Source: Candidatus Phoenicimicrobium oleiphilum
GTDB taxonomy: Bacteria > Atribacterota > Phoenicimicrobiia > Phoenicimicrobiales > Phoenicimicrobiaceae
Assembly: GCA_039638295.1 (NCBI GenBank)
Contig: JBDIWJ010000006.1
Span: 1 to 57,635 of the forward strand
Reading direction: 5' to 3'
Length of the DNA: 57,635 bases
A model generated the notes under the pieces. The model ran no database searches and was not told the DNA's origin. It worked only from the letters and a program-made list of their open reading frames with translations. The number at the start of each line of letters is the position of its first letter. The stretch's first letter is position 1. Shown piece after piece: positions 43,905 through 57,635 of this stretch. Both the position numbers and the translations under genes were made by a program.

Positions 43905-45878
43905 ATGAAGTTACTTTCACCAATTAAAATTGGTAATTTAGAAATTAAAAATAGAGTAGTTATGGCACCAATGACTTGCAATTTTGCTAAAGATGGGTTT
44001 ATTACTGAGCAGATGATTGATTTTTATGCAGAGCGAGCAAGAGGAGGAGTAGGTGTAATTACAGTCGAAGATGGTATAATTGATTTTCCCTTAGGAAATA
44101 ATGCCAAAAACCCTGTAGCCATTGATGATGATAAATATATACCTATGCTTAAAAAACTTAGTTCAGCTATAAAAAAACATGGTGCTAAAGCAGCGATTCA
44201 ACTGTCTCATGCGGGGAGAAGAGCAGGTCGTGTAACTTTAGAAAATGGCTATTTAGAAGTAACTCGTGGTCAAATACCAGTTGCACCTTCAATGATCGCC
44301 CATCCCTTCCCCGGACAAGTTACCCCCAGAGAGCTAAGCGAAGAAGAGATTGAAGAGATTATAGAAAAATTTGGCCAGGCGGCGAGGAGGGCAGTTGAGG
44401 CTGGATTTGATATTATAAGTATACATTGTGCCCATATGTATTTATGTGGTGAATTTTTATCCCCTTGGGCTAATAAACGAAAGGATAAGTATGGGGGGAG
44501 TTTAGAAAATCGTATGCGGTTTGTTTTAGAAATTATTAGAAAAGTAAAAAGTTTAGTAGGTTCAGACTTTCCTTTAGTTGCTCGTATGAATGGCCAGGAA
44601 CCTGAGGGTGGAAATTCACCTTTAGAGATTCGGGAAATTGCAAGAAGACTGCAATTAGCAGGAATTAAAGCTATTAGTGTTTCTACTGGGTTTGGGGCTG
44701 TTCTCCACGAAAAAAATTTTATTTCAGCAGAAGCACCGATAGGTACTCCCGAGGGATGCATTGTTAATTTAGCAGAAAATATTAAAATAGGAGTAACAAT
44801 ACCAGTAGCAGTAGGAAATAAAATTCGCCATCCAGAGTTTGCAGAAAATGTCTTGCAAAAAAATCAAGCAGATATGATTACTTTGGGTAGGCCTTTAATT
44901 ACTGACCCTTATTGGGTTCAAAAAGTTGCCGAAGGTAGATATCAGGATATTCGACCTTGTGTTTCCTGTTGTTATGGTTGTGTAGGAAATGTGCTTAAAG
45001 GTACACCAATTACCTGTATTTTAAACCCGTTAGCAGGAAAGGAAGGTAAAAAAGAATTTAGGTATGTACCCGTAAATAAGAGGGATGGAAAGAAAGTTTT
45101 AGTAATTGGTGGTGGTCCTGCAGGGCTACAAGCAGCTATTACCGCGGCGACTAGAGGACATAAAGTTACTCTATGGGAAAAGGAAAGAAAATTAGGTGGA
45201 ACAATTGTATTAGCTGCTAAGCCTCCCCGCAAACAAGAGTTAAATGAAATTGTTGATTATTTTAAAAATAGGATTAATCAATTAAATATACAGGTAGAAT
45301 TAGGAAAAGAAGTAAACGAAAAAATGATTAAAGAATTTAAAGCAGATGTGATTATTTTAGCCTCGGGTGGCAATAGGATTATACCAGATATTAAAGGAAT
45401 TAAGGGAAATAAGAATGTTTATTGGGCACTTGATTTACTCAAAAATGATTATACAGATATTGGGCAAGAAATAGTTATTGTTGGGGGAGGAGAAGTAGGA
45501 TTAGAAACTGCTGAATGGTTGGCGGAAAAAGGGAAAACGGTGACTGTTATTGAAATACTTCCTGAAGTGGCAAGAGATATGGTACACGCTGTTAAAGTTC
45601 CGCTAATGATAAGTTTAAAAGATTATGGGGTAAAGATATATACCAATACTCGTGTAAAGCAAATAAAGTCCGATGGTGTGATAATGGAAAGAAATGGGAT
45701 AGAAGAAACGATCAAGGCAGATGCAGTTGTTATTGCTGTGGGAGTGAAGGCTGAAGATAAATTGGAGAATAGATTAAGGGGTGCTGTATCAAAATTGTTC
45801 TGTGTGGGGGATTGCCAAAAACCTGGCAATATTATGGATGCGGTACATGAGGGATTTAAAATAGGATTACAAGTTTAA
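43905..45878 (+). CDS. NADH:flavin oxidoreductase, OYE family with 4Fe-4S and FAD domains (enoate/dienoyl-CoA reductase-like)
   Basis: NRVVMAPM, QLSHAGR, HCAHMYL, NKRKDKYGGS, CVSCCYGC...C, GGGPAG and GGGEVG. Confidence 0.9.
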   Translation: MKLLSPIKIGNLEIKNRVVMAPMTCNFAKDGFITEQMIDFYAERARGGVGVITVEDGIIDFPLGNNAKNPVAIDDDKYIPMLKKLSSAIKKHGAKAAIQLSHAGRRAGRVTLENGYLEVTRGQIPVAPSMIAHPFPGQVTPRELSEEEIEEIIEKFGQAARRAVEAGFDIISIHCAHMYLCGEFLSPWANKRKDKYGGSLENRMRFVLEIIRKVKSLVGSDFPLVARMNGQEPEGGNSPLEIREIARRLQLAGIKAISVSTGFGAVLHEKNFISAEAPIGTPEGCIVNLAENIKIGVTIPVAVGNKIRHPEFAENVLQKNQADMITLGRPLITDPYWVQKVAEGRYQDIRPCVSCCYGCVGNVLKGTPITCILNPLAGKEGKKEFRYVPVNKRDGKKVLVIGGGPAGLQAAITAATRGHKVTLWEKERKLGGTIVLAAKPPRKQELNEIVDYFKNRINQLNIQVELGKEVNEKMIKEFKADVIILASGGNRIIPDIKGIKGNKNVYWALDLLKNDYTDIGQEIVIVGGGEVGLETAEWLAEKGKTVTVIEILPEVARDMVHAVKVPLMISLKDYGVKIYTNTRVKQIKSDGVIMERNGIEETIKADAVVIAVGVKAEDKLENRLRGAVSKLFCVGDCQKPGNIMDAVHEGFKIGLQV

Positions 45879-45906
45879 ATTTTAATAAGATGGCGGTGAA
45901 AATAAT

Positions 45907-47895
45907 TTGAATATATTTAAAAAGAAGAAAAAAAATATTGATTTGCAAAGTGAAGAGGTAATCAAGAGGCCGCTTGCAGGCAACCTTAAGAAATTAGTAA
46001 CAGTTTTGGCTATCAGTCTTTCTTTATTTCAATTATATACGGCTGCTTTTGGTATTTATAAGACTGCCATTATTCATCGGGCGGCACATTTAATTTTTAT
46101 TTTAGTTTTGTTCTTCATAATTTATCCAATAAGCAAGAAAAATCATCAAAATAAAATAGGAGATATAATTGACTATCTTCTTGTCTTTATCTCCTTGTTT
46201 TCTGTTGGGTATATAGTATTTTTTTATGAAGCAGTAGCTAATAGAGTAATGAACCTGGAAAATTTAACAAAATTAGATAATTTTGTGGGGATTATTGTTA
46301 TATTATTAGTATTAGAGGCAAACAGGCGTTCAAATCGTACTTTCTTTTTTCTTATGCTCCTTGGTTTAGCGTATATGTTGTTTGGTCCATATTTTCCAGG
46401 ACTTTTTGCCCATCCAGGGATTTCTTGGGAACGATTAATCTATTTAATATCATATTCTTCAGAGGGAATTTTTGGTATTGGTTTAGCAGTATCTTCAACT
46501 TACCTATATATTTTTATATTGTTTGGCGTATTTTTGGGAAAGACTGGGGTAATAGATTTCTTTATCGATTTAGCCCTTTCATTAGTGGGTAAGTACTCAG
46601 GTGGGATGGCAAAGTCTTGCGTGATTAGTAGTTCTTTGATGGGGACTATAACAGGTAGTTCTCTTGGTAGCGCAGCAGCCGTAGGTTCCTTTACAATTCC
46701 GATGATGAAAAAAGAAGGATTTAAAAGCCATGTGGCTGCTGCAATAGAGGCAATTTCAGCCTGCGGGGGGCAATTAATGCCACCAGTTATGGGAGCAGCA
46801 GCTTTTATTATGGCTGAGATAATTGGGGTCCCATATGGGAAGATAGCTTTAGCTGGATTGATCCCGGCAGTTATATATTACATAAATGTCTTTTCAATAA
46901 TTCATTTTGAGTCACTTAGTAGTGGTATAAAAGGTCTAAATAAGAATAAATTACCAAAATTTAAAGATGTAGTTTTATCTTCAGGGTATTTATTATTACC
47001 TCTATTGGTATTAATTTATACATTGATGATCGCAGGTTATAGTGCTACAAAATCTGGTTTTATAGCCATAATTTGTTGTATTATAGTTACTTACTTTCGA
47101 AAGGAAAATCACTTTGGCTGGAAAAATTTCTTGCAAAGTTGTGAAGAAGGCGCTTATTCTGTTCTGAAAATTGCTATATTATGTGCAGGGATTGGCTTAA
47201 TTATTAGCTCGGTTACCTTAACTGGATTAGGTATGCGTTTTTCAAGTATTGCGATAGCCTTAGCTGGGGGGAATCTATTTTTACTATTATTTATTACGAT
47301 GATTATGAGTTTGATTTTAGGTATGGGTATGCCTACTCCTATTGTGTATTTATTAACAGCTATTTTTATTGCTCCTTCAATGATGCAATTGGGCGTTTCA
47401 GCATTTGCTGCACACTTTTTTGTCTTTTATTACGCTATATTATCGGGGTTAACGCCACCAGTTTGTTTGGTTGCGATTACAACTGCTGCCATAGCAAAAG
47501 CAGATTGGTTTAAGACAGGTTTAACAGCAACTCGTTTTGCTTTGGCTGTTTTTATTGCTCCGTATATATGGATTTTTAACCCTCAATTATTAATGGTGGG
47601 CAGTTGGTATGAAATATTATTGGTTTTCATGCTTGCAACAATGGGAGTTATTGCAATTGCAAGTAGCTTACAAGGGTGGTTTATAAACAAAACAAGCTGG
47701 ATAGAAAGAATAATTCTATTTATAGCCGGTCTTTTGGTAATGAATCTAAAAGGGGGGTGGTTAATGGTTATAAGCGGATTATTATTAGTATTCATTGTGG
47801 TGATTTACCAGTTAAAGAATATTAAATTTAAAATGAATGTTAGGGGGGATAAGAATAGGGAGTATAGTACACAAAATATAGAAGATTGTAATTAA
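45907..47895 (+). CDS. TAXI-TRAP transporter fused permease (4TM/12TM)
   Basis: GGQLMPPVMGAAAFIMA, LILGMGMPT and TPPV motifs; about 16 hydrophobic helices. Confidence 0.9.
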   Translation: MNIFKKKKKNIDLQSEEVIKRPLAGNLKKLVTVLAISLSLFQLYTAAFGIYKTAIIHRAAHLIFILVLFFIIYPISKKNHQNKIGDIIDYLLVFISLFSVGYIVFFYEAVANRVMNLENLTKLDNFVGIIVILLVLEANRRSNRTFFFLMLLGLAYMLFGPYFPGLFAHPGISWERLIYLISYSSEGIFGIGLAVSSTYLYIFILFGVFLGKTGVIDFFIDLALSLVGKYSGGMAKSCVISSSLMGTITGSSLGSAAAVGSFTIPMMKKEGFKSHVAAAIEAISACGGQLMPPVMGAAAFIMAEIIGVPYGKIALAGLIPAVIYYINVFSIIHFESLSSGIKGLNKNKLPKFKDVVLSSGYLLLPLLVLIYTLMIAGYSATKSGFIAIICCIIVTYFRKENHFGWKNFLQSCEEGAYSVLKIAILCAGIGLIISSVTLTGLGMRFSSIAIALAGGNLFLLLFITMIMSLILGMGMPTPIVYLLTAIFIAPSMMQLGVSAFAAHFFVFYYAILSGLTPPVCLVAITTAAIAKADWFKTGLTATRFALAVFIAPYIWIFNPQLLMVGSWYEILLVFMLATMGVIAIASSLQGWFINKTSWIERIILFIAGLLVMNLKGGWLMVISGLLLVFIVVIYQLKNIKFKMNVRGDKNREYSTQNIEDCN

Positions 47896-47981
47896 GTATT
47901 AAAATAAAAAAATGTTTAAATTGATAATATTTATTAAGTTTAACTACAGCAATTAATATTAATAAAAAAGAGGTATAAAAA

Positions 47982-48944
47982 ATGAAAATTAAAGTAAAAA
48001 TCTTAAAACCGTTTTTGATAGGCTTACTTTTTTTTACTATAGTAGCTTGTAGTTTTAATATTCAGGTAAAAGCTGAAGGTATTATGTGGACGTTAGGTAC
48101 ATCTGGTTCCGGATCTTCTCCTTATATTATGGGGGGGGTTTTTTCTGACGTAGCAAATAAACATTTAGACGGCTTGAAAATTTTCCCTCAAGTTACAGAA
48201 GGTTTTGAGGCGAATATAGGTTTAATCGCTAACCAAACAATACCTATTGCTGAAGCAAGTAATAATGTTGTAATTAAAGGTTATGCTAAATATCCTGATA
48301 TTCGGGGTTTATTCAACTTTCTAATGTGTCCCATACACATTTTAGTAAATGCTAAAGATAATTTTAATAGCATTGAAGATTTAAGGGGAAAGAGAATAAA
48401 TATAGGAGCTCCAGGCCAGTCTACCAGAGGGATTGCCACAGCTATGTTAGAAGCCTATGGGTTAGAATCTGGTGACTATAAAATATCATCTTTGAGTACC
48501 AAAGAATCTGCTGATGCTTTAAAAGATGGGCAAATCGATGCAGCTGTTATTATTGCCAATACACCAATGCCGAGCATTGCTTCGGTTGCGGTTACTAAAA
48601 GTATAGATTTATTGCCATTAGATGGACCAAATGCCGATAAGTTTAATGAGGCTATGGGATTCATAATGGCGCCTACCTCAATTCCTGCCGGCACTTATAA
48701 AGGTGTAGATAAAACTGTAAAAACATTAGCTTTCCCAATTATGATTATTGCCCATAAAGATTTAGACGTTGAACTTGTTTACCAATTTACTAAATCTGTT
48801 TGGGATAACTTAAATGAGCTAAAAGCGGCACACAATGGTTTTAATTCATTAGAGTTAGCCGGAAGTGCTATTGCGGGATGGGGAAATGTTCCTATACATC
48901 CCGGCGCAGAGAAATATTTCAAAGAAGTTGGAGTAATAAAATAA
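47982..48944 (+). CDS. TAXI-family TRAP substrate-binding protein
   Basis: Signal peptide; GTSGSGSS, DLRGKRINIG, ALKDGQIDA, IPAGTY and PIHPGAEKYFKE. Confidence 0.9.
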   Translation: MKIKVKILKPFLIGLLFFTIVACSFNIQVKAEGIMWTLGTSGSGSSPYIMGGVFSDVANKHLDGLKIFPQVTEGFEANIGLIANQTIPIAEASNNVVIKGYAKYPDIRGLFNFLMCPIHILVNAKDNFNSIEDLRGKRINIGAPGQSTRGIATAMLEAYGLESGDYKISSLSTKESADALKDGQIDAAVIIANTPMPSIASVAVTKSIDLLPLDGPNADKFNEAMGFIMAPTSIPAGTYKGVDKTVKTLAFPIMIIAHKDLDVELVYQFTKSVWDNLNELKAAHNGFNSLELAGSAIAGWGNVPIHPGAEKYFKEVGVIK

Positions 48945-48992
48945 AAATTAAAATTAATAGTTTGAAATTTAATTAAAGGGAAGATTTTTTTT

Positions 48993-49046
48993 TGGGAGAA
49001 AAAGGGGTATTAATGAGGTATTAATCTATAATCCCCTTTTCTCCCA
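48993..49046 (+). terminator. Stem-loop after the TAXI binding-protein gene
   Basis: TGGGAGAAAAAGGGG ... CCCCTTTTCTCCCA. Confidence 0.6.
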
Positions 49047-49118
49047 GAGATACATATTTGTTAGCAAAAATGTTTTTTTATTATAAAAAGGTTTAATGAA
49101 AAAAAGGGGGTAATTACA

Positions 49119-49748
49119 ATGAAAATTGTAGGCATAGTATGCACACCGAGAGTCGGTGGAAATTCAGAGGTTTTAGTAAAACAAATTTTGGATGGGGCAA
49201 CAAAAGCCGGAGCAGAGAGCGAAGTTATCTTCGTTAGAGATAAAAAAATACAACTTTGCGATGGGTGCATGAAGTGTATAAAATCTGGAAAATGTCACTT
49301 AACTGATGATATGGAAGAGATTGGCGAAAAATTGGTAACTTCTGATGGCATAGTTATCGGAGTTCCTACTTATTGGACCATTGGTGGTATGGGGGTTGCT
49401 TTTTTGGATAGGTTGTTACCTTATACTGCTTCTGGAATACTATCTAACAAGGTAGGAGCAGGAATTGCAGTAGGTGCAAGAGTGGCGGTGGATACAGCAG
49501 TTGGGGTTTTGCGGCGCTTTTTCATATATTCTCATATGTTATGTGTCGAATGTGTTGCTCACTATGGTACTATACCCGGTGATGTAATTAAAAATGAATA
49601 TGCAATGAAATCTGTATGGGAAATAGGTCGTTTAATGGTATTATTTAAGGAGAATGGTAACAGATATCCGGAAGAATATTCAATTCCTCTATCTAATTAT
49701 GTTAAGAAAAAATACAGTGATGACATTTATCCTTATCATTCTTCCTAA
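49119..49748 (+). CDS. Iron-sulfur flavoprotein (Isf)-like flavodoxin-fold protein 1
   Basis: TPR..GNS, CxxCxxC-x5-C (CDGCMKCIKSGKC), DGIVIGVPTY and NKVGAGIAV. Confidence 0.82.
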   Translation: MKIVGIVCTPRVGGNSEVLVKQILDGATKAGAESEVIFVRDKKIQLCDGCMKCIKSGKCHLTDDMEEIGEKLVTSDGIVIGVPTYWTIGGMGVAFLDRLLPYTASGILSNKVGAGIAVGARVAVDTAVGVLRRFFIYSHMLCVECVAHYGTIPGDVIKNEYAMKSVWEIGRLMVLFKENGNRYPEEYSIPLSNYVKKKYSDDIYPYHSS

Positions 49749-49783
49749 ATTATTATCTTTTTTATAGAAACAGAGGAGGGAAT

Positions 49784-50416
49784 ATGTCTATTAATGTTAT
49801 AGCTATTGCAGGTAGTCATCGTAAGAATAGTAACACAGAGTTAGCTTTACAGATTATGTCTAAAAGATTATCCAAGATTGATATTGAGACTGAAATAATA
49901 ACTCTGGCTAACAAAAAGATTGAACATTGTCGGGCCTGTGATAATTGTAAAAGAACAAGGAAATGTCCTATTAATGATAACCTTGTGGAAATTATGGAGA
50001 AGATGATAACTGCTCAGGGAATTATCTTGGCCTGCCCCATATATAGTTTTAATATCACCCCCTTAATGCAAGACTTAATAACCCGGGGTAACCGATATTT
50101 TCATATCCTAGCTAAATCTGTCATTAAAGATGATTTTAATAATCCCGGTTTTACCTATAAAAATATCCCATATTCAGCTTTAAAAGGTAAAGTAGGAGCA
50201 GCCATAACTGTTGCACGTCGGGCAGGAGGTGGTATGGCTTTGTGGAATTTGAATAATTTTATGTTGGTTAATGAGATGCAAGTTGTGGGCTCTTGTTATG
50301 AGAATACAATTTTTGGAAACGAAAGAGGAGCAATAATAAAAGATATTGAGGGGATGAATAATCTTTATAGATTAACTGATAACTTTGGAATACTTTTGAA
50401 AAGATTATTTAGTTAA
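49784..50416 (+). CDS. Iron-sulfur flavoprotein (Isf)-like flavodoxin-fold protein 2
   Basis: GSHRKNSNT, CRACDNCKRTRKC, GIILACPIY and GKVGAAITVARRAGG. Confidence 0.82.
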   Translation: MSINVIAIAGSHRKNSNTELALQIMSKRLSKIDIETEIITLANKKIEHCRACDNCKRTRKCPINDNLVEIMEKMITAQGIILACPIYSFNITPLMQDLITRGNRYFHILAKSVIKDDFNNPGFTYKNIPYSALKGKVGAAITVARRAGGGMALWNLNNFMLVNEMQVVGSCYENTIFGNERGAIIKDIEGMNNLYRLTDNFGILLKRLFS

Positions 50417-50596: not shown

Positions 50597-51358
50597 ATGA
50601 CTGAAAAAAGGAAAAATATTAATATAAGGCGAGTAGCGCAAGTATTAAAATGTTTTACTCAAAAACCAAATGGCTGGGGGATAACTGAACTTGCCTCTCA
50701 TTTAGGATTAGCAAAAAGTGTAATTTTTGAAATTTTAAATACCTTATGTGAAGAAGGTTTACTAGAAAAAGACAAAGATAAAAAAATATATCTTTGTGGA
50801 GATGAACTATTAAAACTTGCCTTAGCCCATTATGGTAATGTAGATTTAGTCAAAGTTAGTAGGCCAGTATTAAAAAACTTAGCTAAAGAAGTAGGAGAAA
50901 CAGTAATATTATCTCAAATAATTGATAATAGAAATATAATTATAGAAAAAGTTGATGGACCACAACCCCTCCGTTTTACCTTAGATATTGGGACAGAATT
51001 GCCGTTAGATAAAGGATCTTCAGCAAGGATATTTTTAGCTTTTTTACCAGATGAGAAGAAAAAAGAGGTAATAGATAAATATAAAATAGATATGAGCAAA
51101 TTAAAAGAGGAGTTGGAAATAGTAAGAAAGAGAGGATTTGCCATCAGCAAAGAAGAAGTGTATCCTGGGGTAAATGCTATATCTGTTCCAATCTTAAATA
51201 ATTATAATGAATTAGTAGCAGTCCTGGGTGTAGGTGGGCCGAACATTCGTTATAATAAAGAAAATGAACAAGGTAAATATAAATTAATATCAAAAATATT
51301 AGCTGCTGGTGAAAAAATTTCTGCCCAAATAGGGTTTTTAAAGTGGGAATGGTCGTAA
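50597..51358 (+). CDS. IclR-family transcriptional regulator
   Basis: GITELASHLGLAKS..F.IL.TL HTH, GETV, and RKRGFAIS.EE...G..AISVPI effector domain. Confidence 0.92.
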   Translation: MTEKRKNINIRRVAQVLKCFTQKPNGWGITELASHLGLAKSVIFEILNTLCEEGLLEKDKDKKIYLCGDELLKLALAHYGNVDLVKVSRPVLKNLAKEVGETVILSQIIDNRNIIIEKVDGPQPLRFTLDIGTELPLDKGSSARIFLAFLPDEKKKEVIDKYKIDMSKLKEELEIVRKRGFAISKEEVYPGVNAISVPILNNYNELVAVLGVGGPNIRYNKENEQGKYKLISKILAAGEKISAQIGFLKWEWS

Positions 51359-51380
51359 TGGATTATTATGCCAAATTAAT

Positions 51381-51428
51381 GAAACTCCTCGCAGCAGAGC
51401 TGCGGGGAATGAACCCTAAGAGATTCAA
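51381..51428. repeat. GC-rich hairpin resembling an IS200/IS605-type end or MITE scar
   Basis: GAAAC-TCCTCGCAGC-AGA-GCTGCGGGGA-AT in an otherwise AT-rich spacer. Confidence 0.45.
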
Positions 51429-51510
51429 TAGATAAATGACTAAATGACTAATTGTGCAACAAATTAATATAAAAAAGTTAAAAAGTTTGTTATTTTTTTT
51501 AAGATGACGA

Positions 51511-51527
51511 TGTGAACGTTGTTTACA
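51511..51527 (+). promoter_or_regulatory. Operator copy 3 (TGTGAAC-GTT-GTTTACA) upstream of the glycyl-radical operon
   Basis: Matches the palindromes at 43831 and 50563; ~50 bp upstream of the activase ATG. Confidence 0.72.
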
Positions 51528-51576
51528 AAAATGATATTTGCAATATTTGATAAATAAATGTAATGAGGAGTAACAA

Positions 51577-52515
51577 ATGCTTAAAATTCCTTTAATTACT
51601 GAAATACAGAGGTACTGTGCTAATGATGGTCCCGGAATAAGAACCGTAATATTTTTTAAAGGTTGTAGTCTAAATTGCCCCTGGTGTCATAATCCTGAAT
51701 GCAAATCCCCAAAAGTAGATATTTACTACCATGAAGATAAGTGCCAACATTGTGGAAGGTGTATTGAAAATTGTCCTCAAGGAGCAATAAGTTGGAGGTC
51801 CCCCAAAAAAGAAGCTATTTTAATAGATAAAGAAAAATGTAATAAATGTCTAAAGTGTGTCGAAGGCTGTCCGTTTAAAGCCTTAGAAAAAGTAGGACAA
51901 GCTTTGGCTTTTGAGCAAATTGTTGATGAAGCACTAAGAGACAAACCTTTTTATGAAACCTCAAATGGCGGAGTCACCCTAAGCGGGGGCGATCCTTTAT
52001 TCTTCCCGGAATTTAGCCTTAAATTATTAAAGAAATTCAAAGCCGAAATGATCCATACCGCAGTAGAAACTTCTGGGTATAGTAAATGGGAAATTTTAAA
52101 GGAAATAACGAAATATACAGATTTATTCTTGTATGACCTAAAGTGTATGGATTCAATTAAACATAAAGATGTTATCGGGGTAGATAACAGACTGATTTTA
52201 GATAATCTAAAAAGATTGTCCGCTCTAAAAGCAAATATCAGGATTAGAGTCCCGGTTATTCCCAGATTTAATGATAATAAAGAAAATTTTAGTCTGATGG
52301 TTGATTATCTTCAAGCCCTTCAAAATCCGACAATAGCAGTCGATCTTTTGCCTTTCCACAATTCTGCAGAGAAGAAATACACCCAATTAGGTTTAAATTA
52401 TATCTATAGAGGTGAACCATTTATGGAAAAGGAACAGGTAGAGTGGATTGAGAATTTTTTGGAAAAGAATAATATTACCACTACTATTGGTGGGCTTATT
52501 GGCGTCGAAAAGTAA
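51577..52515 (+). CDS. Glycyl-radical enzyme activating enzyme (BssD-like radical SAM protein with ferredoxin insert)
   Basis: KIPLITEIQRY..NDGPGIRT, CxxxCxxC (CSLNCPWC), two CxxCxxCxxxC motifs, GVTLSGGDP and a BssD-like C-terminus TTIGGLIG. Confidence 0.93.
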   Translation: MLKIPLITEIQRYCANDGPGIRTVIFFKGCSLNCPWCHNPECKSPKVDIYYHEDKCQHCGRCIENCPQGAISWRSPKKEAILIDKEKCNKCLKCVEGCPFKALEKVGQALAFEQIVDEALRDKPFYETSNGGVTLSGGDPLFFPEFSLKLLKKFKAEMIHTAVETSGYSKWEILKEITKYTDLFLYDLKCMDSIKHKDVIGVDNRLILDNLKRLSALKANIRIRVPVIPRFNDNKENFSLMVDYLQALQNPTIAVDLLPFHNSAEKKYTQLGLNYIYRGEPFMEKEQVEWIENFLEKNNITTTIGGLIGVEK

Positions 52516-52551
52516 AGAAAAAAGAGTAATAAAAAGTAAGGAGGTGGGGAG

Positions 52552-52725
52552 ATGGCTGTTTGCAAAGAATGTAAAAATTTTAAACCATTAAAACAGAGTG
52601 ATTTGGATTATGCGAAAGGTAAAGGTGATTGTTTTTTACCTCAACAGGATGAAAAATGCAAATATTGGACAGCAAAACCAGTTAAGGAAGATATGACAGC
52701 ATGTGATAGATTTGAGAAAAAGTGA
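52552..52725 (+). CDS. Fumarate-adding enzyme gamma subunit (BssC-like, 57 aa; not in the ORF track)
   Basis: Strong SD AAGGAGGTG. MAVCKECKNFKPLKQSDLDYAKGKGDCFLPQQDEKCKYWTAKPVKEDMTACDRFEKK matches the BssC pattern CxxC..F.P....DY..GK.DC....DEK.KYW..KP.......C..F. Confidence 0.88.
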   Translation: MAVCKECKNFKPLKQSDLDYAKGKGDCFLPQQDEKCKYWTAKPVKEDMTACDRFEKK

Positions 52726-52777
52726 TTTAGTTCTATAAAATGTTTATTAACAAAAAATAGGAGGTTAAGAGGTTAAA

Positions 52778-55249
52778 ATGAAAAATATCACAGAAAAAGA
52801 TAAACAAGATGAATTGATTAAACCGATGACTGAGCGAGCAAGAAAATTAAAAGATACTCTCTGGTGGAAGCATACCAGAGGAGGAGAATACGTCGAAAAG
52901 GGAGTTAAGGCAGGAATAGAAAGAGCCAGATATATGACCCAATCTTTTAAAGAGACCGATGGTGAAGAGTGGGTAATAAGAAGAGCGAAAGCCCTGGCTA
53001 ATGTGTTAGATAATATGACTATCTTTATAAAGGACCACGAGCTGTTAGTGGGTGATCATGCTGAGAAGCCCAACCTTATGCCCATCTATCAGGAAAGTAA
53101 CTATTTTTTAAATATTGATTTATTAAATAGTCCATATTGTCCTGATGAAAAAGAAGAATTTAGAGAAATTGCAGAATGGTGGAAGCCCCATACTATTCAA
53201 ACTAAAGCGGAAAAATATATCGACGAAGAGGAAAAAGAACTTCAGAGCGCTAATGCATCAATGGAATCCCCGGGCTATTTGACTGGTTATTCAAGTCCTA
53301 CTCCTTCTTACGAAAGTGTATTCGAAGATGGTTTAGAAGGTAGAATTGAGCGTATAGAGAAAAAACTAAAAGAAGCCCAAGATGAATTTCTACACCAAAA
53401 TCCCTGGAATGGACCGGAAGCTATGACTTTGCCCAAAAAGATGGATGAGTGGAAGGCAATGTTAATTGCCGATAAAGCCGTAATAAGATGGGCAAAAAGG
53501 TATGCCAGGTTAGCAAGATATATGGCTGAAGAAGAGAAAAATCCCAAAAGAAAAGAAGAACTTTTGATGATTGCTGATATATGTGACCATGTACCGGCAA
53601 AACCCTGTCGGGGTTTTAGAGATGCAGTGCAAGCCCAATGGTTTACCTATCTGATTGTTCAATCTTTAGAGCGTTATGGAAGTGGGATGTCCTGCAAGAT
53701 GGATACAATGTGGTGGCCCTATTATAAGAGAAGTGTTATAGATAAGGCAGAACAACCTATGACCAGAGAAGAAGCAGTAGAGCTGGTAGTTTTGCATAGA
53801 TTAAAAGTTTCAGAACATGGAGTTATAAAGAGTAGATTGTATAGGGAAATTCATGCTGGGGCAAACGACCTCTTTATTATTACTATCGGAGGCGTAGAAC
53901 CAGATGGCAGTAATGGTTGCAACGAGTTAACTAATGTTATATTAGAAGCAGCAGCAACTGCGATGACTACTGAGCCATCATTAGGACTTAGATGGCACGA
54001 AAATATGCCTGAGCTAACTGCTCGTTATGCCTATGAATGTATAAAAAGAGGACTGGGTTTCCCCTCAATTAAAAATGATGAAGTTGCAATCAATTCACTA
54101 GTACAGGGTTTTGGAAGTGGCACGCTTTCCATACAAGATGCCAGGAGATGGGCTTTGTGTTTATGTATGTCTCCGGGACCAACAGGAAGACATGGTGGTT
54201 TGAGAACGAGGTGGGCTTGTTCCTCTTATACTGGAAAGTGTCTAGAATTAGCTCTAAGTGATGGTTATGATTATTCTTACACCGATATGCAATTAGGACC
54301 AAAGACCGGAGATCCTACTAAGTTTAAAACCTTTGATGATTTACTGCAGGCTTACAAAATTCAATACCAATATGTTCATTCGGCAATTACCAGGTCCAGA
54401 GATCTAACCAGATATTTAGAAGCAAAGTTCTACCAATCTCCATTTTTATCCAGTCTTGATGATGAGTGTGTGGAGAGAGGTCTCGATGGTATTGAATGGG
54501 ACGAATTCTGTAATCCTTGGTTTAACGTAATGGATGATGTGGTAGTAGCAGACTCCTTAGCTGCGGTAAAAAAATTGGTCTTTGAAGAGAAGAAATATAC
54601 TATGGAACAGTTAGTAAAGGCTCTTCGGGCAAATTGGGAAGGTTATGAAGAGATGAGATTGGACTTTTGGAATGCGCCAAAATGGGGGAATGATGATGAT
54701 TACGTAGACGATGTAACAAAAAATTTATTTAGATATCATTCCCTTGAACTTCAACAGAATACCAATCTTTTTGGAGCTCATCCCAAACCACTTCCCCAAC
54801 ATGTAGCAATATATTGGACTTTAGGACCAAGGATTGGAGCAACTCCTAATGGAAGGAGACATGGAGAGGTATTAGATGATGGAGGAAGCTCACCATATAT
54901 TGGTTGTGACAAAAAGGGACCAACCGCGGTTTTAAATTCCTGCGCAAAGATCGACTATAGCTTGCAAAAGGGTTGTCTACTTAATCAAAAGTTAGATCAT
55001 AATGTGATGAACAGCGATAAAGGTTTTCCATTATGGTTTGCCTATATGAAAACCTGGCACAAGCTGGGTATAGATCATGTACAGTTTAACGTATGTGACC
55101 ATGAACAATTGAGAGATGCTCAAAAGCATCCGGAGAAATATCCGGATTTGATTGTTAGAGTTGCCGGTTATAGTGCAAGATTTATAGACCTTTCAGTATA
55201 TGCTCAAGATACTATCATTGCTCGGACAGAACAAGAATTAGCCGGATAA
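52778..55249 (+). CDS. Fumarate-adding glycyl-radical enzyme alpha subunit (BssA-like, divergent)
   Basis: Cys loop LCMSPG (Cys463), Gly loop RVAGYSA (Gly797), YREI..G.NDLF, IDHVQFN and IIARTEQ; flanked by an activase and small Cys-rich subunits. Confidence 0.9.
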   Translation: MKNITEKDKQDELIKPMTERARKLKDTLWWKHTRGGEYVEKGVKAGIERARYMTQSFKETDGEEWVIRRAKALANVLDNMTIFIKDHELLVGDHAEKPNLMPIYQESNYFLNIDLLNSPYCPDEKEEFREIAEWWKPHTIQTKAEKYIDEEEKELQSANASMESPGYLTGYSSPTPSYESVFEDGLEGRIERIEKKLKEAQDEFLHQNPWNGPEAMTLPKKMDEWKAMLIADKAVIRWAKRYARLARYMAEEEKNPKRKEELLMIADICDHVPAKPCRGFRDAVQAQWFTYLIVQSLERYGSGMSCKMDTMWWPYYKRSVIDKAEQPMTREEAVELVVLHRLKVSEHGVIKSRLYREIHAGANDLFIITIGGVEPDGSNGCNELTNVILEAAATAMTTEPSLGLRWHENMPELTARYAYECIKRGLGFPSIKNDEVAINSLVQGFGSGTLSIQDARRWALCLCMSPGPTGRHGGLRTRWACSSYTGKCLELALSDGYDYSYTDMQLGPKTGDPTKFKTFDDLLQAYKIQYQYVHSAITRSRDLTRYLEAKFYQSPFLSSLDDECVERGLDGIEWDEFCNPWFNVMDDVVVADSLAAVKKLVFEEKKYTMEQLVKALRANWEGYEEMRLDFWNAPKWGNDDDYVDDVTKNLFRYHSLELQQNTNLFGAHPKPLPQHVAIYWTLGPRIGATPNGRRHGEVLDDGGSSPYIGCDKKGPTAVLNSCAKIDYSLQKGCLLNQKLDHNVMNSDKGFPLWFAYMKTWHKLGIDHVQFNVCDHEQLRDAQKHPEKYPDLIVRVAGYSARFIDLSVYAQDTIIARTEQELAG

Positions 55250-55265
55250 CAAGAAAAGTTAAATA

Positions 55266-55310
55266 GTGAGATGATGGTTTTATTATAAAAATTAATAACC
55301 ATCATCTCAC
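55266..55310 (+). other. Strong intra-operon hairpin between the alpha and beta genes
   Basis: GTGAGATGATGGTT / AACCATCATCTCAC 14-bp perfect stem with no following U-tract. Confidence 0.7.
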
Positions 55311-55366
55311 ATGTGGAATTCAATTAAAATATGTAAAACTATAAAAAATTATTTACGGAGGAAAAT

Positions 55367-55585
55367 ATGGAAAATAAAGAGAAAACTTGTAAAGATTGTA
55401 AATATTTTATGGTTGCACCTACGAATCCTTTTAAAGGAACTTGCACAGTAAATAGAAAGAAATTACCAGATACCCAAGCTACCTCAACATTTATTCCTGG
55501 CAAGTTAATCAAAGGAGATAATCCGAAATGTGATAAGTTTGAGCCATCTAGCGGCTGGGAAGATAATATTACACAGACACTTTAA
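55367..55585 (+). CDS. Fumarate-adding enzyme beta subunit (BssB-like, 72 aa)
   Basis: SD GGAGG. CKDCKY...PTNP.KG.CT.NR...C..F matches the BssB pattern CxxCK....PT.P..G.CT.NR. Confidence 0.82.
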   Translation: MENKEKTCKDCKYFMVAPTNPFKGTCTVNRKKLPDTQATSTFIPGKLIKGDNPKCDKFEPSSGWEDNITQTL

Positions 55586-55625
55586 TTTGATGGGTTAAAT
55601 TAAAAAATAAGGAAAGGGGTAAAAA

Positions 55626-55805
55626 ATGGAAAATATATTTGATAAAATGGTTTGTAAAGATTGTGATTTATTTCAACCAGACGTTGAAGATAAGGAGAAG
55701 GGATATTGTTGGAAAATAATGTCTGTGAAGGATAAGAAAGTTGTTTCTGCAAATGATGGATGCCCATCATTCCGTCCCAAAATAGATTTTTTTGCTAAAA
55801 AATGA
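55626..55805 (+). CDS. Third small 4-Cys protein of the BssB/BssC type (59 aa; not in the ORF track)
   Basis: SD-like AAGGAAAGGGG. MENIFDKMVCKDCDLFQPDVEDKEKGYCWKIMSVKDKKVVSANDGCPSFRPKIDFFAKK shares CxxC..F...(K)G.C...C..F spacing with the two neighbouring subunits. Confidence 0.75.
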   Translation: MENIFDKMVCKDCDLFQPDVEDKEKGYCWKIMSVKDKKVVSANDGCPSFRPKIDFFAKK

Positions 55806-55809
55806 ACTA

Positions 55810-56038
55810 TAATTTTGTAGATGGTGCTCAGGGGGACTGCTCGAATTCTAGCGGTGCTGCCGTAATTAGCCGAATACTCAAATATACTTAAGACGTTCTT
55901 TATATATCTGTATAGTTTTTAGGTACTTATCTAATAAATCACTTGAAAATGGGTATATAAAAAATAAAAAAAGGGGGTGGTAAATTAGTTAATTATCAAA
56001 TATTGTTAATTTGTTAAGTAAAACAACATAGTGATTAA
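55810..56038 (+). repeat. Direct repeat copy 1: cyclase 3'-end remnant plus downstream leader
   Basis: 55810-55867 is almost identical to 57081-57137 (one extra G, one substitution); 55934-56038 is similar to 57226-57337. Confidence 0.88.
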
Positions 56039-56232
56039 TTGATTTAAAAAAATATTAAGGGAACTATACAAAATTATTGAAAATACTCAAAACATAATTA
56101 AAAGATCAGGTGCTTAGATAATATCTATAAATGAGCTAATAAATCAAACTAAATGCTAATTCGAGAAAAGAAATAAGAATGATATAGTGTTTGAAAAAGC
56201 TCAAAGTATTTTAATAGGGAAGGAGGTAAAAA

Positions 56233-57135
56233 ATGAGAATGAGGAAGATAATAACAAGCGGTTTGATATGCATGCTAATATGCCTTCTTATAATAGGCGT
56301 AGCTTTATGTACCTCTTCAGAAGCAAATTGGACGATAAAGTTAGGGGCTACGAATGTTATTGATTTGAGCTATCCACTTTACAAAAATAATGAAGGTATG
56401 AGCATGTCCGATGTTTATATTCCTCTCGATATTCGTGATGAGATTACATTGGGTAGTAAGACCATCCCTTTCCCCGCAACTGTAGATGACAATGGTTATC
56501 CAGTAAATGGTTTCTATGCTAGGGAGATATATGGAATGCTTGAAGGGCATGGTACGCATGTTGAGGCTTCTTCTCATGGTTTTGGAGAGCTTGGTCGTAA
56601 TATTGACGACTATCCTTTATCACGTTTTATCGGTCCTGCCGTGGTTATAAATATTGAAGCTAAAGCAGTAAAAAACCCAGATTATGAGATAACGGTTGAA
56701 GATCTTCGTGTGTGGGAGAAGAAATATGGGAAGATACCTGATGGTGCTTGCGTTATACTTTTCTCTGGAAGGGGTAAATATTGGGGAGACAAAGAAACTT
56801 ATTTTGGTATGGATGCAGAAGGGAAGGCCCATTACCCTGGTTTTTCAATAGAGGCGGCTAAATTTCTTGTGAAGGATCGACACATTAGTATGATGGCTAC
56901 AGATTGCCCGACAGCTGAAAGCGCTCTTCAAAAGAGGACTATCAAGACAGAGCGTGCGTTTGGATCAGCTCCTGTACGTGATATAGTGCAGTGTCCCCCC
57001 AATGATGTGATCATAATTGAGTATTTAGCTAATGTTGAGAAGCTTCCTGAAAGCGGGGCACTTATTATCGCCGCTCCAATTAATTTTGTAGATGGTGCTC
57101 AGGGGACTGCTCGAATTCTAGCGGTGCTGCCTTAA
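56233..57135 (+). CDS. Exported cyclase-family metal-dependent hydrolase (kynurenine formamidase / isatin hydrolase-like)
   Basis: Hydrophobic signal peptide; IDLSYP, variant motif EGHGTHVEASSH, IGPAVVI, HYPGFS.EAA.FL, IIEYLAN and ARILA. Confidence 0.82.
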   Translation: MRMRKIITSGLICMLICLLIIGVALCTSSEANWTIKLGATNVIDLSYPLYKNNEGMSMSDVYIPLDIRDEITLGSKTIPFPATVDDNGYPVNGFYAREIYGMLEGHGTHVEASSHGFGELGRNIDDYPLSRFIGPAVVINIEAKAVKNPDYEITVEDLRVWEKKYGKIPDGACVILFSGRGKYWGDKETYFGMDAEGKAHYPGFSIEAAKFLVKDRHISMMATDCPTAESALQKRTIKTERAFGSAPVRDIVQCPPNDVIIIEYLANVEKLPESGALIIAAPINFVDGAQGTARILAVLP

Positions 57136-57337
57136 TTTCCTAACAACCGCCAAGACCACTAAATAATAATTTAATATAATTAGGAGTTTATTTATATACC
57201 TACATAATTGTTAGATATTTTGGTGATAAATTACTTGATAGTGGGTGTATAAAAAAATAAAAGAAAAAAAGGGGGTTGGTAAATTGGTCAATTATCAAAT
57301 ATTGTTAATTTGTTAAGTAAAACAGCATAGTGATTAA
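57081..57337 (+). repeat. Direct repeat copy 2
   Basis: Pairs with 55810-56038. Confidence 0.88.
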
Positions 57338-57392
57338 CTAATTGCAAGTTTATAGTAAAATGGAAGAAAATGTTTAAGGAGGTTTAAAAAAA

Positions 57393-57635
57393 ATGATAAA
57401 AGTAAAAAAAATTAGTATTGTTTCTGTTTTAGTATTAGCTATTTGTCTTTTAGTTGGATCGGCTTTTGCTTTTGCTGCTGACAAGGTATATACCATAAGA
57501 TTTGCTCATGGTTTACCTGGTACTCATCATGTAGCTATAGAATATGCTAATTGGGCGAAGATGATAAAAGAAGAATCCAACGGGCGATTAAATGTGAAAA
57601 TATACCCAGGAGGACAGCTTTATACTGATACAAAC
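57393..57635 (+). CDS. TRAP transporter DctP substrate-binding protein, 3'-partial (not in the ORF track)
   Basis: SD AAGGAGG; signal peptide followed by IRFAH...H....WAKMIKEESNGRLNVKIYPGGQL, a typical DctP N-terminus; open to the window edge. Confidence 0.85.
   Translation, partial: MIKVKKISIVSVLVLAICLLVGSAFAFAADKVYTIRFAHGLPGTHHVAIEYANWAKMIKEESNGRLNVKIYPGGQLYTDTN

Follow-up and report, generated by a model that had tools for sequence, protein, structure and literature searches.

A candidate beta-derived third [4Fe-4S] accessory subunit encoded in the operon of an atribacterial fumarate-adding glycyl radical enzyme

INTRODUCTION

In the available portions of the literature to September 2026, glycyl radical enzymes (GREs) with small subunits are described for three systems only: HPAD, which carries a gamma subunit; benzylsuccinate synthase (BSS), which carries beta and gamma; and (1-methylalkyl)succinate synthase (MASS), which carries beta, gamma and delta (PMC13450708, PMC13598205, PMC12358834). 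No further GRE small subunit beyond these sets was found in those portions. The delta subunit, rubredoxin-like and bearing a single Fe, is treated in the same sources as unique to MASS. In BSS, a single beta subunit is described as doing what beta and delta do together in MASS (PMC13450708, PMC13598205). MASS activity in Escherichia coli was abolished by omission of either masB or masE (cited in PMC12358834). In Atribacterota, faeDCAB was reported in JS1 metagenome-assembled genomes (MAGs) including UBA6794, UBA4082 and UBA6251 (Liu et al., 2019; PMC6776118). The encoded FAE is in print as a heterotrimeric enzyme, with faeE-G of unknown function (PMC6776118).

The DNA analyzed here, hereafter the window, is a stretch of 57,635 nucleotides (nts) from Candidatus Phoenicimicrobium oleiphilum that contains such an operon. 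A further short gene, ORF3, directly follows its beta gene. We propose, with slightly better than even confidence, that the ORF3 product is a third accessory subunit of this fumarate-adding GRE, derived from beta and carrying a [4Fe-4S] cluster.

AN ADDITIONAL SMALL GENE AT THE END OF THE OPERON

The operon is arranged in the order activase-gamma-alpha-beta-ORF3, with ORF3 as the last gene (Table 1). The activase scores 356 bits against NCBIfam TIGR02494, for which the cut-off is 174, and bears two ferredoxin motifs in addition to its Pfam Radical_SAM domain; its rSAM_BssD score of 319.5 lies under that family's cut-off of 496. The gamma gene, which the initial annotation had also singled out, is real, as its Pfam match attests, and its product retrieves TutF (E 1.1e-12) and MasC (E 3.6e-5) from the PDB. 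The best solved relative of alpha is TutD (E 3.5e-269), with MasD also retrieved from the PDB (E 5.2e-171), and both Cys463 and Gly797 are invariant in an alignment of 71 sequences. The BssB_TutG match of the beta subunit is above the cut-off (31.6 vs. 25.6) and spans residues 3-33, in the N-terminal half only; its PDB match to TutG has an E value of 0.0058. Twelve beta homologues share 68-89% identity. NCBIfam returned no family for the gamma, beta or ORF3 proteins.

Table 1. Features of the operon region, in positions of the window
Feature	Position	Strand	Remarks
IclR-type regulator gene	50597-51358	+	Upstream end of the operon region
GRE activase (faeD/bssD-like), 312 aa	51577-52515	+	NCBIfam TIGR02494, Pfam Radical_SAM
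Gamma small subunit, 57 aa	52552-52725	+	Pfam BssC_TutF, E 3.6e-17, above cut-off
Catalytic alpha subunit, X-succinate synthase, 823 aa	52778-55249	+	Pfam PFL-like and Gly_radical
RNA hairpin, alpha/beta spacer	55266-55310	+	MFE -24.7 kcal/mol, z -4.67
Beta small subunit, 72 aa, Cys8/11/26/55	55367-55585	+	Pfam BssB_TutG, E 1.6e-7
Shine-Dalgarno-like AGGAAAGGGG	55610-55619	+	6 nt 5' of the ORF3 ATG, read directly
ORF3, 59-aa Cys4 HiPIP-like protein, ATG start	55626-55805	+	Proposed third accessory subunit

ORF3 had been noted from the sequence as a 59-residue reading frame with a Shine-Dalgarno site of its own, placed 40 bp after the BssB-like gene, and this description is accurate: the ATG follows the end of that gene (55585) by 40 nt, and AGGAAAGGGG precedes it by 6 nt. 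In three other genomes, a purine-rich GGAG or GGGAG occupies the same place, and across the four genomes the spacer between beta and ORF3 measures 39-54 nt, with a purine-rich ribosome site ahead of ORF3.

Of 8 distinct loci, all 8 carry the gene, intact and at the corresponding place, so that it withstands the comparison with related clusters that the initial annotation had in mind. Among 86 Atribacterota genomes, ORF3 is present in four, and these are exactly the four whose alpha is 89-100% identical; none of the other 82 carries it. A fifth genome encodes an X-succinate synthase alpha of 39% identity, with one in-frame TAA, and yields no ORF3 match. This more distant alpha is located at G076:C315:4903-7320 (L010; same order), with an activase and an IclR gene beside it. 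All four of these genomes keep the order activase-gamma-alpha-beta-ORF3, as does every additional locus long enough to show it. Seven additional loci were compared, of which L011-L013 evidently correspond to MAGs of three of the four genomes, and L014-L017 are metagenome contigs; L014 and L015 are complete operons, and L016 and L017 carry the beta-ORF3 part. Existence, conservation and a tie to this one alpha clade are thus matters of observation for ORF3.

The pattern of sequence change is that of a protein. Twelve ORF3 protein clusters in public data, sharing 73-100% identity, have 32 invariant columns that include all four cysteines, and their indels are in-frame and two codons long. Variable columns number 16, 19 and 38 at codon positions 1, 2 and 3, respectively, over 64 codons. 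Five genome pairs with dS of 0.18-0.76 gave ORF3 dN/dS ratios of 0.16-0.31, in keeping with the purifying selection on which the earlier proposal of a genuine gene turned; the nearly identical pair G035-G074 (dS 0.03) gave 0.68 and is uninformative. For comparison, the ratios are 0.09-0.18 for beta (0.77 in one pair), 0.04-0.07 for gamma and 0.06-0.12 for alpha. The intact frame, in-frame indels, third-position bias and low dN/dS together establish ORF3 as a protein-coding gene under purifying selection, with a constraint about that of beta. A conserved untranslated stretch, such as a 3' untranslated region of beta, or a gene in decay would be compatible with the shortness of ORF3 and with the fact that no proteomic evidence was seen, yet either is scarcely credible given a frame intact in all eight loci, the 16/19/38 codon bias, dN/dS well below 1 and a conserved Shine-Dalgarno site.

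The exact ORF3 protein has entries in NCBI, nr, JGI and Logan, none of which gives it a function; one homologue is labelled "hypothetical protein," and one match is named Candidatus Atribacteria. The gene has therefore been called before, but without an assigned function. The original epithet "unannotated" is apt for the function and not for the protein. RNA-library contigs, which may be DNA carry-over, lie over ORF3 in two of three RNA runs, from two studies. Run X2 yielded one 11.8-kb contig spanning 51400-56020, and run X14 a 293-nt contig that matches 55580-55872 with zero mismatches; in run X15 ORF3 had no cover. Since such contigs can originate from carried-over DNA, transcription of ORF3 does not follow from them.

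SURROUNDING DNA

Several features of the flanking DNA deserve description in their own right. The hairpin in the alpha/beta spacer is unusually stable for its composition, as 0 of 200 shuffles were as stable. A like hairpin occurs in 7 of 7 alpha-beta spacers examined, including those of L011-L016, and changes on both of its arms keep the pairing. Rfam returned zero matches in 51000-57635, the hairpin included. It splits the operon into an activase-gamma-alpha part and a beta-ORF3 part, and could set different levels for the two.

On the 3' side, a stretch of roughly 235 nt (55810-56044) that sets in 5 nt past the stop codon of ORF3 repeats 57081-57343 in direct orientation. The repeated unit comprises the last ~55 nt of a cyclase gene (56233-57135) together with its downstream spacer, in segments of 100%, 97%, 74% and 89% identity. 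In L015-L017, a remnant of the cyclase C-terminus likewise lies directly 3' of ORF3, and contigs from both DNA and RNA runs branch at 55806-55835. With a repeat or remnant and a branch point immediately behind ORF3, the conserved block ends exactly with this gene. The cyclase segment has the look of a scar left by a duplication or a deletion. Farther along, 50-170 nt downstream of ORF3, an A-run is followed by GGGGGTGGTA and ATT (55960-55990 and 57259-57290 in the window, and likewise in G035, G074 and G063). All four genomes conserve this element, which precedes the next gene, one for a DctP-type binding protein (57393 in the window), and may be the ribosome-site or operator region of that transporter gene.

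Upstream of the operon, 43905-50416 encodes an Oxidored_FMN/Pyr_redox_2 enzyme (657 aa), a fused DctM-type permease (662 aa), an NMT1_3-type binding protein and two FMN_red proteins. Dicarboxylate transporters are described beside atribacterial FAE operons in the available text of PMC6776118, and the upstream gene set fits that description. The genome from which the window comes also holds a second GRE, at G000:C12:35089-37383 (L002), which is 36% identical to alpha and has its own activase upstream.

A SMALL CYS4 PROTEIN RELATED TO THE BETA SUBUNIT

The four cysteines of ORF3 (C10, C13, C28 and C46) are spaced CX2CX14CX17C. A pattern of cysteines, phenylalanines and a Lys-Gly pair common to ORF3, beta and gamma had been pointed out from the sequence, and a three-way alignment substantiates it with ten positions at which all three are identical: C10, K11, C13, F16, K25, G26, C28, K37, C46 and F49 in ORF3 numbering. 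Of the two neighbors, beta is the closer. Aligning the ORF3 family to the local beta family with hhalign gave a probability of 79% (E 1.6e-5) over 50 columns with all four cysteines aligned, from shallow alignments with Neff about 2; the corresponding values are 17.7% for ORF3 against gamma and 38% for beta against gamma. Congruent with this ranking, CX2CX14C is common to ORF3 and beta, while gamma has CX2CX19C. The third and fourth cysteines are separated by 17 residues in ORF3, 28 in beta and 27 in the metagenomic relatives P0013 and P0015. None of the four cysteines varies among 12 close and 4 distant ORF3 homologues. Homology of ORF3 to beta is therefore probable on the strength of profile and spacing, and the simplest history would be that the beta gene was duplicated and the copy then lost part of its long loop and exchanged its tail for another.

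Searches with ORF3 against established families gave no match above a cut-off. At E values up to 1, there was no match to Pfam PF18512 (BssB_TutG) or PF08201 (BssC_TutF), and ORF3 scored below every Pfam gathering score, including HIPIP (PF01355), for which it reached 18.8 bits against a required 22 (E 0.002). In A8, which has 28 members, 12 match PF18512, a number equal to that of the beta sequences it contains, and 14 match Pfam HIPIP at E up to 1. Against the PDB, the best match of the ORF3 sequence is the high-potential iron-sulfur protein (HiPIP) 8z82_a (E 0.004), with whose four cysteines C10, C13, C28 and C46 align; the family profile gave only MasC (E 0.35) and HiPIP 8z82_a (E 1.1), both non-significant. 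Most likely, the four cysteines hold one [4Fe-4S] cluster. A Cys4 motif does not settle the cofactor of ORF3, since the delta subunit of MASS, for which a cluster had been predicted, was found with a single Fe. Another family, DUF6472, was also considered for ORF3, having emerged from an ESM Atlas feature search with clusters at 0.90-0.91. It was dropped because shuffled proteins reach this level in 4-10 of 100 cases and Pfam reports no DUF6472 match for ORF3.

The ORF3 family is very narrow: apart from its own alpha clade, it takes in two small relatives from metagenomes. When 1.84 billion representative proteins were searched with the profile, six matched at E up to 0.001, namely, its own clade, a 30-aa fragment, P0013 (70 aa), P0015 (73 aa) and two long proteins. 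The long ones, P0016 (1213 aa, E 4e-5) and P0017 (2909 aa, E 1e-4), each match over several short stretches and look repetitive. A metagenome scan with the patterns of P0013 and P0015 found no context for them, and a scan of genome collections for the same purpose returned Atribacteria MAGs only. There is a hint, and only that, that P0013 lies together with the alpha protein P0027, which is 81% identical to alpha: the longest contig is 7146 for both.

The close kinship with beta raises the question of whether ORF3 is simply an alternative beta, competing for the beta site and thereby conferring a second gating state or another substrate range. This would account for beta being its closest profile relative, with the same CX2CX14C spacing, and for the location of its gene, adjoining beta downstream of the conserved hairpin. 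However, the 17 residues between the third and fourth cysteines of ORF3 stand against 28 in beta, and the gap falls in beta's long insert; in BSS, this region of beta is a loop reaching toward the helix bundle (PMC12358834). The C-terminal tail of ORF3 also differs from that of beta, which in BSS contacts the glycyl radical domain (PMC13450708). Both genes are, moreover, kept in 8 of 8 loci, and with beta present the complex model described below still places ORF3 confidently on alpha, at a site that takes in neither the loop-1 equivalent nor any of the glycyl radical domain. An alternative beta is therefore unlikely. The interchangeable beta gate that the initial annotation had entertained is unlikely on the same points, namely, the 11 of 28 inter-cysteine residues that are missing, the different tail and the modelled site. 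The other half of that proposal, an extra Fe-S-type subunit, is supported by synteny, co-occurrence, selection, profile comparison and the complex model; it is the interchangeability that is improbable.

PREDICTED DOCKING ON THE CATALYTIC SUBUNIT

On its own, ORF3 is poorly modelled. From 12 sequences AlphaFold2 reached a pLDDT of 49.5, and from 28, beta among them, 52.8; both values are too low for interpretation. A Foldseek search of the PDB with the 28-sequence model had 0 matches at E up to 0.001 and four at E up to 10; two of these four are BSS beta chains, with E values of 8.1 and 9.3 that carry no evidential weight.

A complex was modelled from alpha 15-823 (with a 71-row alignment), beta, gamma and, as the partner, ORF3. 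The complex score was 0.75 (0.74, 0.75 and 0.77 in the individual runs), against 0.08 for the best of three controls, so that the proposed pairing with alpha fares well in a model. The runs share at least 94% of their contacts, and the partner's pLDDT is at least 81. In calibration, 58 of 80 solved complexes attained this mark, as did 2 of 110 mismatched pairs, in a set-up unlike the present one, which used custom shallow alignments and four chains. A pass can also stem from likeness to the solved BSS or MASS complexes. The placement of beta and gamma is assumed in this model, and alpha is treated as a monomer; the ORF3 site could be one that a second alpha covers. Within these bounds, the model supports, by inference, a physical association of ORF3 with alpha.

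In the model, ORF3 makes confident contacts to alpha only, at residues 151, 496, 505-536 and 645-660. The contacting residues on ORF3 are 14-15, 17-18, 20-21, 29, 32-35, 37, 50, 53 and 55-57. The contact pairs with the lowest predicted error involve Q17 and W29, which together with D14 are the non-cysteine contact residues of ORF3 that are invariant even when distant homologues are included. The predicted footprint on alpha includes neither the equivalent of loop 1 nor the glycyl radical domain (Pfam 703-803). Loop 1 of BSS spans 55-65 and, with an offset of 30 (Cys493 vs. Cys463), corresponds to ~25-35 in alpha. As BSS beta touches both loop 1 and the glycyl radical domain (PMC12358834, PMC13450708), the footprint predicted for ORF3 is not the described beta site. 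Nor does it look like the conserved hydrophobic gamma patch, since several of its positions are charged in most other alphas: among 62 other X-succinate synthase alphas, 33 have K at 528, 43 have D or E at 652 and 46 have K or R at 660. The ORF3-linked alpha clade has V or I at 528 and L at 656. Aligned to MasD, alpha 645-660 falls within MASS alpha 602-677, which the MASS paper, in the part available, describes as the C-terminal helix bundle, a region that undergoes a clamshell motion upon exposure of the glycyl radical loop. The same part of that paper places the delta subunit of MASS at this bundle.

Evolutionary signatures of coadaptation were sought at the modelled footprint, with null results. 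Clade-specific substitutions are not significantly enriched there (7 of 31 positions vs. 110 of 792, p 0.14), and neither are hydrophobic gains (2 of 31 vs. 19 of 792, p 0.19) nor the changes in P0027, the alpha that may accompany a divergent ORF3 homologue (10 of 31, p 0.10). On the ORF3 side, contact residues are no more conserved than the others, 10 of 17 being invariant compared to 22 of 42. Relative to the 62 other alphas, the ORF3-linked clade is without ~21 N-terminal alignment columns that most others fill; its alpha also has three extra residues at 446-448 and two missing after R478, with zero indels at the modelled footprint.

The model also bears on whether ORF3 might be a free small metalloprotein, exchanging electrons with the activase or with the small-subunit clusters, or else acting as a radical-quenching or repair factor. 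A HiPIP-like Cys4 motif and a monomer fold that is not confidently predicted would suit such a protein, and electron transfer has been proposed for GRE small-subunit clusters, although without experiment (PMC13450708). ORF3 lacks, however, a signal peptide and a ferredoxin-type motif; the complex model holds up with alpha but drops to a failing 0.08 once another protein takes the place of alpha; and a family limited to this alpha clade and two metagenomic relatives would be unusual for a general carrier. We consider this reading rather unlikely. For the electron carrier once suggested for ORF3, the potentials of the BSS cluster are instructive. The sole HiPIP-like GRE subunit cluster to have been measured, it is reported at +76 mV (3+/2+) and below -450 mV (2+/1+) (PMC13450708); by analogy, the HiPIP-type likeness of ORF3 would not suggest a donor to the activase.

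A further alternative holds that ORF3 acts transiently in assembly or maturation, inserting clusters into beta or gamma or helping alpha to fold, and is absent from the mature enzyme. Its place in the operon, its tie to the alpha clade and the lack of a bssE-like gene among the window ORFs scanned around the operon would agree with such a factor. Against it, ORF3 bears no similarity to known chaperone or scaffold families in Pfam or NCBIfam, and the predicted interface is one with folded alpha, which together make an assembly factor very unlikely. The more specific notion of a replacement for BssE fares badly as well, as BssE is an AAA+ type ATPase and the 59-residue Cys4 protein has no such domain.

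PROPOSED ROLE OF ORF3

A stably bound accessory subunit derived from beta thus remains the reading that we favor. What we infer for this subunit is that it holds a cluster, that it binds alpha, where it does so and to what effect, and the case is assembled from comparative genomics and one structure model. The proposed sequence of events begins with a probable duplication of the beta gene. The resulting ORF3 would be translated from the common beta-ORF3 part of the operon, and its product, a minimal HiPIP-like protein, would dock on alpha at a site of its own. That site would comprise 505-536, which form the helix that follows barrel strand 6, and 645-660, the final helix of the C-terminal bundle. 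Because this bundle is expected to swing out as the glycyl radical domain opens to the activase, a protein seated there would hold or release it. By restraining or freeing the bundle, ORF3 would help to control the installation of the radical and its protection. Such a role would resemble that proposed for the unrelated, rubredoxin-like delta subunit of MASS. More tentatively, and with less than even confidence, one might picture the atribacterial enzyme as a four-subunit GRE composed of alpha, beta, gamma and a beta-derived "beta-prime," which would have converged with the delta of MASS in splitting the two roles of beta.

If true, a BSS-clade enzyme with beta and a second, beta-like subunit would constitute a third GRE architecture and a natural experiment on why stand-alone Fe-S subunits gate the radical domain. 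Separation of substrate gating from radical-domain gating would then be a recurrent solution, and might hint that toluene is easier to hold than the substrate of this deeply branching enzyme. There is also a practical side. In oil reservoirs, the atribacterial enzyme is used as a marker for the degradation of hydrocarbons, and its heterologous expression should include the 59-codon ORF3 gene.

COMPARISON WITH KNOWN SYSTEMS

The operon of Liu et al. (2019) is the same gene cluster as the one described here, with UBA6794, UBA4082 and UBA6251 corresponding to loci L011-L013. Of the known small subunits, BssB/TutG (PF18512) comes closest to ORF3 in sequence: it too is a small HiPIP-like Cys4 protein encoded beside alpha, and it is the best profile relative of ORF3. 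In contrast to BssB/TutG, ORF3 has no PF18512 match, has 11 fewer residues between the third and fourth cysteines and ends in an unrelated tail; a true beta coexists with it in every locus, and the site modelled for ORF3 differs. The gamma subunits BssC/TutF and MasC are likewise small Cys4 HiPIP-like proteins, MasC being the top, non-significant PDB match of the ORF3 profile, but they are set apart by the low hhalign value (17.7%), the CX2CX19C spacing and the presence of a true gamma gene upstream of alpha. HiPIPs proper (PF01355) share with ORF3 four cysteines that align with the cluster ligands of a solved HiPIP. Unlike them, ORF3 falls under the family cut-off, has an N-terminus that, read directly, bears no export signal, and is bound by its operon to a cytoplasmic enzyme.

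A functional parallel would be with MasE, the delta subunit of MASS (PDB 9O8U), a third small subunit that is likewise encoded downstream of alpha; the ORF3 footprint as modelled includes the aligned helix (alpha 645-660) of the alpha bundle at which MasE sits. Structurally, the two are distinct. MasE folds like a rubredoxin and binds a single Fe through two CX2C pairs, whereas ORF3 has one CX2C, two lone cysteines and HiPIP spacing; the tail of MasE makes extensive contacts to the glycyl radical domain, and none are modelled for ORF3. Searches of 9O8U with the ORF3 sequence and profile found no delta chain at E up to 10, and MasC only, at a non-significant E of 0.35. ORF3 is probably, then, a third HiPIP-like subunit in a BSS-clade X-succinate synthase, and the available portions of the literature know of no benzylsuccinate-synthase-type enzyme with one. 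On this reading, it would work somewhat like the delta of MASS while having neither the two CX2C pairs nor the sequence similarity that define delta, and the helix bundle of alpha would be attended by unrelated small proteins in the two enzymes.
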